Shown: positions 2,549 to 60,198 of the stretch, one piece after another | Layout: each line of letters begins with the position of its first letter | Numbering within the stretch: position 1 is the first letter of the stretch | DNA from: an uncultured Alphaproteobacteria bacterium | GTDB lineage: Bacteria; Pseudomonadota; Alphaproteobacteria; SP197 | Length of the DNA: 64,000 bases | Assembly (NCBI GenBank): GCA_938048755.1 | Contig: CALIUG010000107.1 | Span: forward strand, 3,994-67,993 | Direction of reading: 5' to 3' | Made by a program: the position numbers and the translations under genes | Notes under the pieces: generated by a model | Databases searched by the model: none | What the model was told of the DNA's origin: nothing | The model's input: the letters and a program-made list of their open reading frames with translations, nothing else

Positions 2549-3178
2549 TCAGCCGACCTTGTCGATGCTGTCAACGATATGGGCGACGATGCCGTATTCC
2601 TTGGCTTCTTCAGGGCCCATCCAGTAGTTCCGATCGGTGTCCTTGGCGACCCGCTCGACCGGCTGGCCCGTTTCCTCGGCGATGATCTGGTTCAACCGGT
2701 CACGCATCTTGAGGATTTCCCTGGCCTCGATATCGATCTCGGTCGCCTTGCCGCCGACGCCACCCATGGGCTGATGCAGCAGGAAGCGCGTGTTGGGCGT
2801 GCAGTAGCGGTTTTCCTTGTCCGCAGAGAGATAGATGTGCGCACCCGCGCTGGCGACCCAGCCGGTGCCGATCACCTTCACCGGTGCGGCAACAAACCGG
2901 ATCATGTCGTGGATGGCATCGCCGGACTCCACATGGCCACCGGGTGAACTGATCACCAGACGGATGGGATCGTGGTTCTCTTCGCTCATGGCGATCAGCT
3001 GGGCGCAGGTTTCGCGCGCGGCCTTTTCGTTGATCTCGCCAAACAGCAGGATCGTGCGCGAATCGAACAGGATCTTCATGACTGCGCGGTTTTTCTCGTC
3101 CTTCTTGGACTTCGCGTCGTCCTTTTCGTCCTTGTCGTCGTCATCGTCGGCGACATAACGCGCATCGAAATCGATCAT
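2549..3178 (-). CDS. ClpP-family serine peptidase paralog (S14) with atypical Asp/Lys-rich N-terminal extension
   Basis: VISSPGGHVESG, GWVASAGAHI (Ser nucleophile), LLHQPMGG (His) and DTDRNYWMGPEEAKEYGIV (Asp) give a full ClpP fold and triad. The canonical ClpP N-terminal axial-loop region is replaced by MIDFDARYVADDDDDKDEKDDAKSKKDEKN. The start could alternatively be the Met at ~3079. Confidence 0.75.
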   Translation of the reverse strand: MIDFDARYVADDDDDKDEKDDAKSKKDEKNRAVMKILFDSRTILLFGEINEKAARETCAQLIAMSEENHDPIRLVISSPGGHVESGDAIHDMIRFVAAPVKVIGTGWVASAGAHIYLSADKENRYCTPNTRFLLHQPMGGVGGKATEIDIEAREILKMRDRLNQIIAEETGQPVERVAKDTDRNYWMGPEEAKEYGIVAHIVDSIDKVG

Positions 3179-3249
3179 GATGGTGTCCGTGATTGGGTCT
3201 GAAACGTCGGGGCCTCTGACATAAGAGCCGGTTGCCCCATTTGCAAGCG

Positions 3250-3717
3250 TCAGGGCGTGGTGCCAGGCGTTTCGGGCAGGGAAACGCCGATCATGGCATC
3301 GCGGCTGACCTGTGCTGCCAGGGCTTCCTCGCTCCAGCCCTGCGTGCCTTCCGGGCGCATGGGCAGAACCATGTAGCGCATGTCGGCGGTGGAATCGTGC
3401 ACGCGGATCTCCGTGGTTTCGGGCAGCTCGGTGCCGAACTCGGCCAGAACGGCGCGGGGCTCGACCACCACGCGCGCACGATAGGCCGGGTCAACCCAGG
3501 CGCGCGCCACCATCTTTGCCCCTCCGGCAGGCGAGCGTGCATCCATGCGTTCGATGGTGCGCCGTTCCTCGTCAGCCGTGTAGATGCCCTTCTCGATCAG
3601 TAGCTCGCGCAGGGCACGCACCAGCAGCATGTGTTCGCTGGGCGGGCCTGCATCATCATCGGGCTGGAACGGGTGGGGGTGGTCATGATCGTGGCCGTGC
3701 TTGTGGTCAGAGCTCAT
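3250..3717 (-). CDS. Nitrile hydratase alpha-subunit-like protein, degenerate (no cysteines; metal-centre segment deleted; His-rich N-terminus)
   Basis: It aligns to both flanks of NHase alpha. The N-side [17 protein letters not shown]...[20 protein letters not shown] matches the 'LIExGxxT...GAKVVAKAWxDPEY' region. The C-side [60 protein letters not shown] matches the 'REPRxLLKEFGxxxPxxxEIxVWDSSSExRYxVLPxRPAGTDGWSEEEL..RDSMIGV' region. The ~45 aa between them (VCTLCSC metal site) is absent in-frame and the protein has 0 Cys. N-terminus is [17 protein letters not shown]. Confidence 0.7.
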
Positions 3718-4004
3718 TGCGCCGCCTCCAGCCAGTGTTCGTAGAGTTCGACCTCGATGGTGTCATCGGGCGTTTCGGCGCGTTCCGACCACAGGTGCTC
3801 CATGGTGAAACGCACACGATAGAGCGGCTGTTCCGGTTTGCCGTCGCCGTGATGGGCCAGGGTTTCGGGGTTGCCGAATACGCCGCACAGACGCTCGACC
3901 ACACCACACCGCCCTTTCACATAAGTCGGCACGCGATGGTGGTGGCGGGGAAACCGTTCTGCGACGATCACACGGTCGCCGGGACTGAACTTTACATCGC
4001 TCAT
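3714..4004 (-). CDS. Nitrile hydratase beta-subunit C-terminal (SH3-like) domain protein
   Basis: [68 protein letters not shown] matches the NHase beta C-terminal half 'KFKxGDxVRxxxxxPxGHxRxxRYVRGKTGTVVxHHGAxIYPD...EHLYTVRFTAQELW'. It has ATGA overlaps with both neighbours. Confidence 0.7.
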
Positions 4005-13460: not shown

Positions 13461-13532
13461 GCCGGCCGGCTCTCCCACCCGGCCACCCACGAGCGTATCC
13501 TTGATGGGTGGCCGGGTGGGGGAGCGGGCTGG
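13461..13532. repeat. REP-like palindromic element, copy A (28-nt arms, 15-nt loop)
   Basis: GCCGGCCGGCTCTCCCACCCGGCCACCCA-cgagcgtatccttga-TGGGTGGCCGGGTGGGGGAGCGGGCTGG. Near-identical arms recur at 22682-22752. Confidence 0.6.
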
Positions 13533-22681: not shown

Positions 22682-22752
22682 CCAGCCCGCTCCCCCACCC
22701 GGCCGCCCATTCAGAATACTGCCGTGGGTGGCCGGGTGGGGGAGTGGGCTGG
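22682..22752. repeat. REP-like palindromic element, copy B (28-nt arms, 15-nt loop)
   Basis: CCAGCCCGCTCCCCCACCCGGCCGCCCA-ttcagaatactgccg-TGGGTGGCCGGGTGGGGGAGTGGGCTGG. The right arm differs by 1 nt from copy A (13505-13532). Confidence 0.6.
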
Positions 22753-44646: not shown

Positions 44647-44784
44647 ACCCCACGCTCGTGTGATCCCGGCCGCAGGCGCGTAGCGCCGGAGAGCCGGGAC
44701 CTCGAGCGTTCGGCGCCGAGCAATCCAGATCCCGGCTCGCCCCTTGGTCGGCTGGGATGACATGAATTTTTCCGGAGATGAAGC

Positions 44785-51831: not shown

Positions 51832-54033
51832 ATGCCATTGAGCGATACCACAACACCGGGCCTCTTCGCGCCGCCCCGCACAGTCCAGGTTCTCCTGCCT
51901 CTGCCGGTGCCGGGCCCCTATGACTATGCCGTGCCCGAGGATCTCGAGACACCGCTGGGTGCCATTGTGCGTGTACCCCTGGGCGTGCGTGAGGTCACCG
52001 GCGTTGTCTGGGCGCAAGGCTCCGGCGAGGTCGATACCGCCAAGCTGCGCCCCATCAGCGAGATCAGGAACGTGCCGCCCTTGACCGAAACCATGCGCAC
52101 CTTTGTGTCGTGGGTCGCGCGTTACACGGTCAGTTCCGAGAGTTCCGTGCTGCGCATGATCCTGCGCATGCCCGAAGCGTTCGAGCCTCCCGCACCGATC
52201 CGCGCCCTGCGTCTGGCGGGTGATCCTCCCGAACGTCTGACTCCCGCCCGGCGTCGTGTGCTCGAGATCATGTCCGACGGCATGGCGCGCACGCCTAAGG
52301 AAATCGCGCATATGGCAGGCGTCGGCACATCCGTGCCCAAGGGCCTGCAGCAGTCCGGGGCGCTCGAGGAGATCATCCTGCCCGCGCGCCGCGCTGTTCC
52401 ACCACCCGATGCGGAAGTCGAGGGGCCAGACCTCTCCAGCGACCAGCAGGAAGCCGCAGCCGTGCTGGGCGAAGCGGTCGACAAGCAGGCCTATGAAGCC
52501 ATCCTGCTCGAGGGGGTCACCGGTTCGGGCAAGACGGAAGTCTATTTTGATGCCATCGCCAGAGCCCTGCGTAGCGGCAGGCAGGTGTTGGTCCTGCTGC
52601 CCGAGATTGCGCTCAGCGCGCAGTTCCTGGCCCGATTCGAAGCGCGCTTCAACGCGCCGCCGGCGGTCTGGCATTCCGGGGTCGCGCGCCGCCAGCGCCG
52701 CGATGTCTGGCGGGGTGTTGCGACGGGTGAGGTGCGGGTCGTCGTCGGCGCCCGCTCGGCGCTGTTCCTGCCGTTCCGTGAGCTGGGCCTGATCGTGGTC
52801 GATGAGGAACACGACGGCTCGTTCAAGCAGGATGACGGCGTCTGTTACAACGCCCGCGACATGGCGGTGCTGCGCGCAAGTCTCGAATCGGTTCCCATTG
52901 TGCTCTGTTCGGCGACGCCGTCGCTTGAAACTCTCGTCAATGTCGATCGCGGGCGTTACCGCCGGCTGGATCTGCCTGTGCGCCACGCCGGTGCCGCCAT
53001 GCCCGAAGTCCGTGCCATCGACATGACCAAGGAGGGCCCCGAGCGTGGCAAGTGGCTCTCGCCCCGGCTGGCCGATGCGCTCACCGCAGCCCTGGAGGCC
53101 GGCGAACAGAGCCTGCTTTATCTTAACCGACGCGGTTATGCCCCGCTGACCCTGTGCCGAACCTGCGGCCATCGCCTGGCATGCCCCAATTGTTCGGCCT
53201 GGCTGGTCGAACATCGCCATCGCGGACGCCTGCAGTGCCACCATTGCGGCATCTGGTCGCCCCGTCCCGAAGCCTGCCCGGAATGCCAGACCCCCGATTC
53301 GCTGGTTGCCTGCGGTCCCGGGGTCGAACGGCTCGCTGAAGAGGTCGCCGAGCGATTCCCCGATGCGGCCATGGAAATCATGGCTTCCGACACGCTGATG
53401 GGGCCTGCCGATGTCGCCGCGCTCGTTGAACGCATGGAAAGAGGCGAGGTCGACATTCTGATCGGCACGCAGGTCGCGGCCAAGGGCCATCATTTCCCCA
53501 TGCTCACCGTGGTTGGCGTGGTCGATGCCGATCTTGGCCTGGATGGGGGTGATCCCCGCGCTATGGAGCGTACCTGGCAGCTTCTGCACCAGGTTTCCGG
53601 GCGGGCAGGGCGCGAGGAACGCCCAGGCCAGGTGTTCCTCCAGACCTTCGAACCCGCCCATCCGGTCATGCATGCGCTGGTCAGTGGTGACCGCGAGCAA
53701 TTCCTCGAACGTGAGAAAGCGGGTAGGGAGGAGGCCGGAATGCCGCCCTATGGTCGTCTGGCAGGCATCGTGATCTCGGGAACGAAGGAAAGCGAGGTGC
53801 GCACTCTGGCCCAGGATCTGGCGCGCAGAGCCCCGCGCGGCCCCGGAATCGATACGTTTGGCCCCGCACCGGCCCCGCTTTCTCTCCTGCGCGGCCGCTT
53901 CCGCTGGCGTCTGCTGGTCAAGGCCGGGCGCGACGTCAACATCCAGTCCGCCCTGCGCACCTGGCTTGCTCCCGTGCAGTTGAAAGGAAGCCTGCGCCTC
54001 CAGGTCGACGTCGATCCGTTGAGTTTTCTTTAG
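51832..54033 (+). CDS. priA: Primosomal protein N' (PriA helicase)
   Basis: Walker [17 protein letters not shown], Cys4 zinc-binding region [16 protein letters not shown]...CHHCG...CPEC, 733 aa. Confidence 0.9.
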
Positions 54034-54036
54034 GTC

Positions 54037-54470
54037 TGTTTGTTTGTTCCCTCAGACGCCGGGCGTTCGCTCCGCTGTTTATCTTTGTTCCCTCAAGCGC
54101 CGGGCGTTCGCTCCGTTCGCTTGGCTTCCGGGCCTCCCGGCCCGCCGGTGCGGTCGCACCGGTCGGCGGCCGCTGCGCTCTCGCCGCCGAATGCCTGCTC
54201 ACCGGTGGTGCAGGGTGCCTGTCACAACCGCCTCAATTGTGTCATCCCGGCTTTGAGCCGGGATCCCGGTCCGCACGTTGCTTTTGAAACCCGTCATGAC
54301 GCGATCCCGGATCGCGCTCGCGCTGCTCGCTTGTCCGGGATGACATCCCGTGGGGTGGTTTGTAGGCGAGAGGTCCCGTAGGGACCGAGGGGAGCGACTG
54401 CGACCCCACCGCGTCAGCGGCGCAAGCCAAGCGGACGGAGTTCGCGCCCGGCGCTTGAGGGAACAAACAA
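54037..54470. mobile_element. MITE-like nonautonomous element (~434 bp) with ~36-bp terminal inverted repeats, a tandem duplicated left end and nested internal palindromes
   Basis: The left end TGTTTGTTTGTTCCCTCAGACGCCGGGCGTTCGCTCCG is tandemly duplicated (54037-54115). The right end CGGAGTTCGCGCCCGGCGCTTGAGGGAACAAACAAA (54435-54470) is its reverse complement. Internal hairpins include CCGGTGCGgtCGCACCGG, CCCGGCTttgaGCCGGG, GTCATCCCGG...CCGGGATGAC and GGTCCCgtaGGGACC. Confidence 0.5.
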
Positions 54471-54659
54471 AAAACCGGAGCATTCGCTCCGCAGCTGAGG
54501 GCTCAAAAATGCCGACTCTTGTTGCATAGGCCATATCCCTATGTTACCTACGCCGCGGCTTGACGATGAAGGGTTGGGTGCACTGTTTCAGGGCGCTTCG
54601 GCAAGTCAAAAAACCCAACGCTGACAAATGTTTAACGGGCACACGCGAGGGCTTCTCTC

Positions 54660-55219
54660 TTGGCCACCGACAACAGCGTAGTCACTGGCCTTTCAGGCCG
54701 CTATGCGCGCGCGCTTTACGAGCTCGCCGACGATTCGAAGCAGCTGGATGCAGTTGCTGAGGATTTGCGCGGCTTGTCGACCGCACTCACCGAATCGGAC
54801 GATATGCGCCGGCTCGTGAACAGCCCCGTGCTGTCTCGCGACGAGCAGGGCAAGGCCATGGCGGCCATTCTGGACGCCATGCAGGCCAACGACCTGACCA
54901 AGAGGGCCATTGGCCTGATTGCGCAGCAGCGCCGCCTGTTCGTCCTTGATGATGTCATTTCAGATTATCTGCGCCTGCTGGCCGCCCACAGGGGCGAGAC
55001 CACGGCGGAGGTGACTTCGGCACGTGAACTCAAGAGCGATGAGCTCGAGAAGTTGCGCGGCACCTTGAAGGAAATTGTCGGCCGCGACGTTGCGGTCGAA
55101 ACGAAGGTCGATCCCGGCCTTCTGGGCGGCCTTGTCGTCCGTATTGGATCGCGCATGCTCGACAGCTCGATCCGCACCAAACTTGAACGCCTTGAGCTTG
55201 CGATGAAAGGGGCTGGCTG

Positions 55220-55220
<1 letters not shown>
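54660..55220 (+). CDS. atpH: ATP synthase F1 delta subunit (OSCP)
   Basis: [11 protein letters not shown] is the OSCP N-terminus; 186 aa; immediately precedes atpA. Confidence 0.85.
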
Positions 55221-59731: not shown

Positions 59732-59844
59732 AGGTGTTCGTGCATGGATCGTCGAATCGAGTTCGACGATGACAAAGAGAACGTGAAAGCGCAGGGTTTT
59801 CAATTACTTGGAGTCATCGTCGAACTCGATTCGACGATCCATGT
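59732..59844. repeat. 30-bp perfect inverted repeat (arms 59732-59762 and 59814-59844, 51-nt spacer); each arm itself contains the palindrome CGTCGAA-N5-TTCGACG
   Basis: GCATGGATCGTCGAATCGAGTTCGACGATGA ... TCATCGTCGAACTCGATTCGACGATCCATGt, seen directly. It lies in a ~650-bp lower-GC noncoding tract between the convergent atpC and LysR genes. Confidence 0.6.
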
Positions 59845-60198
59845 ACTGCCGGTAGAACACGCGATTTCGCTGGACGCAGCCACGATCTCATCGCCCGTCC
59901 AAAGTCTTCGAGGTACCGCGCCAACCACCTGGACAACACGATGTTCCGGGCCGACTTGCTACAACCGCAAATCCGGACTAGGAACAAAAAAGTGAACAAA
60001 ATGCCGTGCCTCTCAACATGCACGAACCGGACGACCTCACCTGATGGTGATCCACTACGCTGCGTAGCAACTACCCGTCCGGAGCGGCCCATAGCCGGTC
60101 GAATTCTACTTTGCATGGGGTTGAACCCCGAAAAAGCGACGAAGCCCTCCCCCAAGTGATGTTTCTCACCCTTTGTCGATCGTGAAATCTAGGATGGT

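Follow-up and report, generated by a model that had tools for sequence, protein, structure and literature searches.

The repetitive extragenic palindromic sequences (REPs) of Escherichia coli and Pseudomonas, which are linked with REP-associated tyrosine transposases (RAYTs), the cognate gene being usually single-copy and flanked by the repeats, are imperfect palindromes of 20-40 nt bearing a terminal GTAG or CGTC tag, and inverted doublets of them, called REPINs, fold into one long hairpin (PMC3116915, PMC2817692). In the Alphaproteobacteria CGTC-tagged REPs predominate, mostly as inverted dimers, and the superfamily to which they belong is characterised by a terminal CGTC, TGTC or CCTC tag, an 8-9-bp stem starting with AT, a loop of 4-5 nt and a short tail (PMC3733652). 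Here we describe a stretch of 64,000 nucleotides (the window) from an uncultured alphaproteobacterium of lineage SP197 (contig CALIUG010000107.1, positions 3,994 to 67,993). In this window the spacer between priA and atpH, the first gene of the atpHAGDC operon, holds a non-coding, hairpin-rich insertion in which two interspersed repeat families are nested. We consider it probable that the insertion, running from 54038 to ~54505, is an interspersed repeat that is non-autonomous, forms hairpins and is nested with another, and is neither a gene nor a regulatory leader.

Architecture of the insertion

The outer of the two families is built from a directional unit of ~85-120 nt, in which a T-rich leader, a head, a first hairpin (hairpin 1), CTTGGCTT(AC) and a run of G+C-rich hairpins follow one another in that order. 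The head, 20 nt long, is nearly invariant and reads GTTCCCTCA-NN-CGCCGGGCG. Hairpin 1 combines a variable 6-bp stem with an invariant closing C-G pair and an (A)TCC loop, and the 3' part of the unit consists of two to four G+C-rich hairpins of free sequence, the last loop often being GGTC or AGTC. At the priA-atpH locus two such units lie tail to tail, each accompanied by an extra copy of the head alone, with a REP doublet of the second family nested in the centre.

The element extends from 54038 to ~54505 (+/- 8), some 470 nt. It does not reach 54530, where a first-pass annotation made from the sequence had placed its end; positions 54514-54548 form a promoter-like block conserved in relatives. 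Reading from the left, a head-only copy (54038-54078, + strand) comprises a T-rich leader, the head GTTCCCTCAGACGCCGGGCG (54046-54065) and then TTCGCTCCG, and lacks hairpin 1 and the remainder of the unit. The left full unit (54079-54235, + strand) has its T-rich leader, a head at 54087-54106, a degenerate hairpin 1 (54107-54119), CTTGGCTT (54120-54127), hairpins 2 (54128-54144), 3 (54145-54162) and 4 (54163-54190) and an arm extension to 54235; as DNA it folds into four hairpins with z = -3.3. Beyond the central doublet (54240-54345) comes the inverted right full unit (54351-54473, - strand), with its T-rich leader at 54465-54473, head at 54445-54464, hairpin 1, CTTGGCTT at 54424-54431 and hairpins 2, 3 and 4 at 54407-54423, 54389-54407 and 54372-54386, respectively. 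A degenerate head-only copy (54474-54505, - strand), its outer edge placed to within ~8 nt, closes the element. When a covariance model of the unit core (R1) was run over the whole window with filters off, only three matches were obtained, all at this single element locus: the left head-only copy with the hairpin deleted (29.4 bits, E = 4.5e-6), the left full unit (60.6 bits, E = 3e-14) and the right full unit (69.7 bits, E = 1.4e-16).

The inverted termini, tandemly duplicated left end and interior hairpins noted in the first-pass annotation are all present. Inverted arms of 36 nt (54039-54074 and 54436-54471) are 83% complementary, and a longer pair of 53 nt (54078-54130 and 54421-54473) is 85% complementary. 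The left terminus occurs as two direct copies (54043-54074 and 54084-54115), 41 nt apart and 94% identical; they read CAGACG and CAAGCG where they differ, so that the duplication itself was correctly seen and only its '[G/A]A' notation was slightly off. The 22-nt terminus pattern was found three times in the window, always at this locus, against an expectation of 0.00 from 100 shuffles. Folding of the 471-nt + strand yields -275.9 kcal/mol, far more stable than shuffled sequences (-207 +/- 6; z = -11.1), and the opposite strand gives z = -8.4.

Inverted symmetry continues into the degenerate outer heads. The minus strand of 54466-54513 agrees with the left outer head and its spacer at 27/38 positions, a score equalled by ~0.3% of shuffles, and the ungapped match of the right outer copy to the left outer head is 26/40, where the maximum among 42,007 null comparisons was 24. 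The alternative that 54474-54505 is native spacer, homologous to the spacers of two relatives (loci L126 and L184; L numbers denote loci), is disfavoured by the alignment statistics, the closest empty site giving p ~0.12, although the last ~10 nt of the right outer copy (CAAAAATGCC) may be native. The hairpin CGGAGC-attc-GCTCCG (54476-54491), which had been placed just outside the right inverted terminus, does exist; judged from the alignments it most likely belongs inside the element, as part of the right outer head-only copy. A 6-codon mini-ORF (open reading frame; 54509-54529, ATG CCG ACT CTT GTT GCA TAG) begins 7 nt past the GAGGG of the right outer head; it overlaps a conserved -35-like box and is probably meaningless.

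The interior, formerly read as part of one element, contains the nested doublet of the second family. Its first REP (54240-54266, + strand) reads TGTC-ATCCCGGC-TTTGA-GCCGGGAT-CC and its partner lies at 54301-54345 on the - strand, the doublet arms TGTCATCCCGG and CCGGGATGACA being 100% complementary. A TGTC tag, which is an accepted variant, an 8-bp stem starting with AT, a 5-nt loop, a short C-rich tail and the arrangement as an inverted dimer all agree with the CGTC REPs of Di Nocera et al. 2013 (PMC3733652); the loop of ~22 nt in the second REP and a tail CC(C) rather than CCA do not. By its sequence the central doublet qualifies as a CGTC-superfamily REP, whereas the outer GTTCCCTCA family falls outside that superfamily. 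The TGTC doublet is also present at the same offset in a related metagenome-assembled genome (MAG; locus L087), and at least 8 metagenome composites have the TGTC REP there. A stand-alone TGTC/GTGATCCCGG...CTGGGATGACA doublet related to the central one is found at 44655-44765 in the window, in the spacer between two + strand genes, and folds as DNA with z = -4.1.

A core of ~45 nt is strongly conserved across distant alphaproteobacteria and in a phage, and hairpin 1 covaries strongly, its structure being kept and its sequence free. Its positions are paired in 95.8% of cells, as against 76.8% in shuffles and 22-65% in controls with slid partners. Cells in which both partners have changed number 186 against 78.7, none of 500 shuffles reaching so high a value, and four of the pairs have changed on both sides in 37-53 of 114 sequences. 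Wobble pairs in hairpin 1 showed no strand bias (8 forward, 6 reverse). In a subfamily that includes the copies in the window, hairpin 1 carries a recurrent symmetric T-C / C-T internal mismatch.

Recurrence of the composite and distribution of its unit

A 22-mer specific to the left arm in this lineage matched 49 metagenome contigs. In total we recovered 16 complete composites, that of the window and 15 at other loci, from related MAGs and marine metagenomes; they are 261-576 nt long and their flanks all differ. The ends common to the 16 are TTTGTTT-GTTCCCTCA...TGAGGGAAC-AAACAAA, and since the TTTGTTT and AAACAAA flanks are inverted they are part of the element. No flanking direct repeat was seen in any of the 16, a result that a duplication of 2-3 bp could escape. 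In one related MAG the composite architecture is found at unrelated loci (L006 and L087), and the lineage-specific arm occurs at 3 loci of a related MAG, again with flanks that all differ. The arrangement of a head-only copy followed 31-46 nt later by a full unit also recurs elsewhere. The left unit of the window shares 47-89% identity with 47 copies from the lineage (median 78%, nearest 86-89%), the median indicating copies that have long been diverging and not a burst in the recent past.

Scanning with the head pattern GTTCCCTCANNCGCCGGGCG, one genome being taken per species, gave at least 117 stretches, which were examined as 8-kb loci; the counts in this paragraph and the next refer to the matches listed. 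Carriers, among them Azospirillaceae-like bacteria and sphingomonads, include Niveispirillum, Nitrospirillum, 'Azospirillum sp. RU38E', strain AAP38 and Oleisolibacter, and further relatives of Erythrobacter, Aurantiacibacter and Aquisediminimonas, Kiloniellaceae and many alphaproteobacterial MAGs. At <=3 mismatches there are 191 heads in 1.0 Mb, against about one expected by chance from 60 shuffled loci. Most of the loci have a single head and not an inverted pair. Where heads are neighbours, 56 pairs are in tandem, 9 tail to tail and 7 head to head. Tandem spacings fall into two classes, 31-46 nt (a head-only copy, then a full unit) and 85-108 nt (arrays of full units), and in 7 of the 9 tail-to-tail pairs the heads are 171-525 nt apart, the window included at 358. 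The '36-bp TIRs' (terminal inverted repeats) of the first-pass annotation are really heads of a free-standing directional unit that elsewhere is mostly solitary or tandem.

All but two of 141 heads are intergenic according to our gene caller, which works from codon log-odds and uses no ribosome-binding-site information. The head side is turned to the 3' end of a gene in 82 cases and to a 5' end in 45, and spacers bearing the unit are convergent in 37 cases, divergent in 9, tandem and co-oriented with the unit in 41 and tandem and anti-oriented in 29. No rule for the orientation of the unit relative to genes was found. Such intergenic, orientation-independent placement is the pattern of a REP-like repeat and not of a strand-specific regulatory RNA.

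When a head is turned towards the 5' end of a gene, a distance of 5-7 nt is common between ...UGAGGGAAC and the start codon (L093, L064, L065, L101, L104, L110 and others), with distances of 0, 5, 6, 6, 6, 6, 7, 10, 12 and 13 among the 45 cases. The inverted head would then offer a GAGGG Shine-Dalgarno sequence at good spacing, our gene caller being blind to ribosome-binding sites. In Niveispirillum the GTTCCCTCA unit is usually flanked by hairpins of the form ATACCAA-stem-TTGGTAT, giving a mosaic. These hairpins constitute a family with conserved ends and freely varying, fully paired stems (seen in L014, L016, L018, L026, L030, L040, L046, L094 and L118, of Niveispirillum and RU38E), which borders the unit on both sides and is also found alone.

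The unit is carried by a phage as well. An IMG/VR contig (2708742415_000004; L128, L131, L132 and L133) has more than 25 heads in many of its intergenic spacers, with tandem arrays of 2-5 GTTCCCTCA units in both orientations and a period of ~108 nt. Its proteins include DNA polymerase A, DnaB helicase, portal, tail tube and minor tail proteins. A prophage-like locus (L093) has unit-rich intergenic spacers resembling those of the phage contig. Among the plasmids of PLSDB, a blast search with the canonical unit matched only those of Niveispirillum and Tistrella, where the matched stretches are unannotated, and the element of the window had no match in that collection.

Two other kinds of palindrome were noticed in the window. 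A third repeat is present in two copies (13462-13532 and 22682-22752), with 28-nt arms, 89-93% complementary, of the form CC.GCC.GCTC.CCCACCCGGCC.CCCA / TGGGTGGCCGGGTGGGGGAG.GGGCTGG around a 15-nt loop. Directly downstream of atpC, at 59740-59846, lies a palindrome with 49-nt arms (84% complementary), a 9-nt loop and the sequence CGTCGAATCGAGTTCGACGATGAC, which may be a CGTC-type repeat or the operon terminator.

The priA-atpH spacer in relatives

The element follows closely on priA (51832-54033, + strand; Pfam PriA_3primeBD, DEAD, Zn_ribbon_PriA and PriA_C). The stop codon TAG of this gene occupies 54031-54033, the first head begins 12 nt further on, and the C-terminus of PriA, ...SFL*, is common to orthologues. 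The next gene is atpH (54660-55220, + strand; Pfam OSCP, E = 2e-49), which heads an atpHAGDC gene order confirmed in locus L001; between the two genes, in 54034-54659, our codon-based caller predicted none.

AtpH homologues served to locate the orthologous loci, and in most of the relatives sampled fsa-priA-atpH synteny is kept. From priA stop to atpH start the distance is 183 nt in L123-L125, 187 nt in L126 and 243-244 nt in L184, L185 and L187, compared with 626 nt in the window. The element is absent from all seven of these spacers, including that of L185, whose AtpH is 93% identical; its presence is thus polymorphic between lineages. Its presence as a composite at many unrelated loci, together with its absence from orthologous spacers, indicates insertion of a non-autonomous REPIN-like or MITE-like element (MITE, miniature inverted-repeat transposable element). 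In this respect the first-pass annotation, with its MITE-like element, is supported: the repeat is of insertion type, does not code, is present in many copies and has inverted ends. It had reserved the name of regulatory leader for a sequence single-copy in the genome and conserved in position, and what is found instead is 15 further complete composites with differing flanks and empty orthologous sites, as for a mobile repeat.

One Rhodospirillales MAG (L122, AtpH 82% identical) has a different, A+T-rich insertion of ~1.2 kb (2760-4000) with an 86-aa ORF in the same spacer, which thus seems to tolerate insertions. In L127 and L186 an HD-domain (PAS/HD) gene, and not priA, adjoins the atp promoter block upstream, so that priA-atpH adjacency is not universal; in L127 priA is apparently fragmented. 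Assembly breaks are also found here, as a repeat would lead one to expect: four contigs whose AtpH is identical stop 215-368 nt upstream of atpH, within the element or shortly before reaching it.

Outside the element, 54514-54659 (+ strand) comprises the promoter-like block and the atpH 5' leader, both recognised by their conservation in relatives. The block consists of GACTCTTGTTGCA (54514-54526) and CTATGTTACC (54539-54548) and resembles the alphaproteobacterial sigma-70 consensus, CTTGAC-N17-CTATAT; a promoter scan of the locus with an E. coli-type consensus found none. Together with ~110 nt of leader up to the start codon, it is conserved from GACTC onwards in 5 aligned orthologous loci, with a mean column identity of 73%, and the block is also recognisable in L184, L186 and L187. 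Upstream of it there is no conservation among the five aligned spacers. The leader contains invariant blocks, for example GTTACC, GCGGC, GACA and CGAGGGC-N-TCTCTTGGC, and had no Rfam match. Since the element ends just upstream of the promoter-like block, it most likely lies outside the atp transcript.

Mode of spread and alternative explanations

Comparison with described repeats places the outer family among familiar kinds, and the family itself seems undescribed: no description of it was found in the searchable literature by sequence string, nor in Rfam. Rfam 15 gave no match at the locus (E <= 10) and none in the window at gathering scores, and canonical units from 8 loci (E <= 1) matched only Pseudomon-groES, below threshold at 28 bits against a cut-off of 50. 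Like the REPs and REPINs of E. coli and Pseudomonas, the unit is extragenic, G+C-rich, hairpin-forming and of high copy number, and occurs as singlets, as inverted doublets folding into one long hairpin and in clusters (PMC3116915, PMC2817692). It is likewise non-coding, with old, diverged copies, compensatory stem changes, no target duplication and a conserved unpaired 5' motif beside a palindrome. It differs in its length of 85-120 nt, its 20-nt head and its three or four hairpins, in the direct tandem arrays that are commonest in some genera, in the sharing of its core by several alphaproteobacterial groups and a phage, and in that no RAYT was found in the loci searched. The mosaic of modules, with ATACCAA...TTGGTAT hairpins in Niveispirillum and nested REPs, recalls the bacterial interspersed mosaic elements (BIMEs) and the pneumococcal BOX, to which there is no sequence relation; the REPs of BIMEs alternate in orientation, whereas the present units are mostly direct. 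With the RIME and Sm-repeats of Rhizobiaceae, compared by description only, it shares the form of alphaproteobacterial intergenic mosaic palindromes of ~100 nt, and the lack of a blast match for the canonical unit on the Sinorhizobium megaplasmids in PLSDB is weak evidence against identity. Correia/NEMIS, ERIC/IRU and RUP MITEs resemble the composite in being non-coding and dispersed, at ~260-580 bp with long inverted ends, and in their possible placement beside promoters and in 3' untranslated regions. They differ in that no target-site duplication or parental insertion sequence (IS) was found here and in that the 'TIR' is an independent unit. In sum, the outer element behaves as REPINs or BIME-type repeats do and has the appearance of a MITE, and corresponds fully to neither definition.

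Several other candidates were set aside. Integron attC sites have the boxes R'' (RYYYAAC)...R' (GTTRRRY) and lie in uniform orientation after cassettes next to intI; here the ends GTTCCCT...AGGGAAC have the wrong order and base classes, and the elements occur in both orientations, flanked by housekeeping genes. The alphaproteobacterial LexA box, GTTC-N7-GTTC, was ruled out by sequence, as were CcrM sites, the -35 element of extracytoplasmic function (ECF) sigma factors, AbcR-type small RNAs and CRISPR, each by comparison with consensus sequences.

The composite, of ~470 nt, can fold into one long hairpin of the REPIN or MITE type, and its copies may have been spread by an enzyme acting in trans. 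Such an enzyme would recognise the folded single strand formed by the head and hairpin 1, in the manner of REP-associated or IS200/IS605-type HUH transposases, and would not be a cut-and-paste DDE transposase acting on double-stranded TIRs. Recognition of a single strand is preferred because the stem is kept in structure and not in sequence, because the loop and flanks are invariant, and because there are solitary units and no target duplication. Tandem arrays and head-only copies could have arisen by local duplication or abortive events. Phages may help to move the family between lineages, the unit arrays of the phage contig and of the prophage-like locus offering a route.

Some observations weigh against this explanation. 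The DNA searched yielded no mobilising enzyme. A RayT query from E. coli, 100% identical to the annotated rayT, had no tblastn match in 1.25 Mb of element-bearing loci, although divergent RAYT groups may escape such a search, and none on the Niveispirillum or Tistrella plasmids either. All-against-all clustering of 821 neighbouring proteins gave only generic families, and none recurs beside the element. Pfam recognised no transposase among the 9 proteins bracketed by inverted heads; the genes found there encode an RTX protein, CcmH/CcmI, a cNMP-binding protein and a phage adaptor. An autonomous IS with the termini of the element was likewise not found in ~1.25 Mb of flanking DNA, and Pfam on 33 proteins of the repeat-rich phage gave replication and structural genes only. 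Template-switch mutation can yield compensatory changes in palindromes in the absence of selection, so that covariation alone is no proof of recognition in folded form. REPs of the classical type are far shorter than this unit, which lacks both the GTAG and the CGTC tag; nor do REPINs show the predominance of direct tandem arrays seen in Niveispirillum. Finally, the source genome is seen over one 64-kb stretch, and its copy number is inferred from related MAGs and metagenomes.

The inverted ends could also be those of a classical MITE, an internally deleted IS moved by a DDE transposase acting on TIRs of 36-53 bp, by cut-and-paste with target-site duplications. The composites, non-coding and 261-576 nt long, have inverted ends as such an element would, recur with the same termini at many unrelated loci and are missing from orthologous sites. 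The first-pass label 'MITE-like' holds to this extent, for a small, dispersed element; the target-site duplication and the transposase that should accompany it were not found, the 16 complete copies lacking a surrounding direct repeat, their T-rich and A-rich flanks being inverted and part of the repeat, and inverted heads 0.4-3 kb apart enclosing no transposase. Moreover the 'TIR' is far more often a solitary or tandem unit, and the stem adjacent to the head shows compensatory changes for which a sequence-specific double-stranded site has no need. We know of no IS family with these termini, and regard a classical MITE as improbable. Somewhat less unlikely, and compatible with a mobile origin, is a structural element selected by the host in the manner of BIMEs or intercistronic REPs, which would block transcription between priA and the atp promoter or insulate the two, stabilise priA mRNA at its 3' end, or bind a nucleoid or topology protein. 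Heads do lie near stop codons (median 38 nt, 29/82 within 14 nt), convergent spacers are favoured over divergent ones (37 vs 9), the structure is extremely stable, the core is conserved in several alphaproteobacterial groups, and many spacers of the prophage-like locus and the phage contig carry units. Set against these are the close relatives that lack the element in the priA-atpH spacer, the variable orientation to transcription (41 vs 29), and the A-rich + strand end of the element, where there is no terminator T-run: the sole terminator-like site, formed on the minus strand by the right outer hairpin and a T-run, faces away from any gene.

A role as cis-regulatory leader or structured non-coding RNA (ncRNA) of the atpHAGDC transcript, or as its promoter, had also been proposed in the first-pass annotation. 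The element is highly structured and lies at least 155 nt upstream of atpH on the same strand. It matches no Rfam family even at E <= 10, which was one of the checks suggested; conservation at this position is confined to the promoter-like block and leader downstream, both intact, and does not include the element; and its unit occurs beside unrelated genes in either orientation. The leader explanation is thereby largely refuted and would now be very surprising. We find no link between the element and atp regulation, and a function as atp leader is improbable.

Returning to the nested, non-autonomous repeat that we prefer, we put forward, tentatively and as a conjecture more likely to fail than to hold, that the GTTCCCTCA-headed unit represents a new class of REPIN-like intragenomic replicators, having a long single-stranded head and a structure-only hairpin, present in several alphaproteobacterial groups, carried by phages and moved by an enzyme unlike RayT. 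The inverted head UGAGGGAAC might, on the same conjecture, have been recruited repeatedly as a ribosome-binding site of the downstream gene.

At the priA-atpH locus the element is most likely neutral filler, adding at most a stable 3' structure to priA read-through transcripts. With the conserved promoter-like block and leader untouched, the atp locus is little affected, and annotation of the element as a regulatory RNA of atp is unwarranted; its presence does explain the assembly breaks at this place. The finding at the locus is an ordinary one and the family is of moderate interest. Its core is useful for repeat masking in the assembly and binning of MAGs and for studying how small palindromic repeats nest in one another, and provides a handle in the search for the enzyme by which alphaproteobacterial repeats of this sort are moved.

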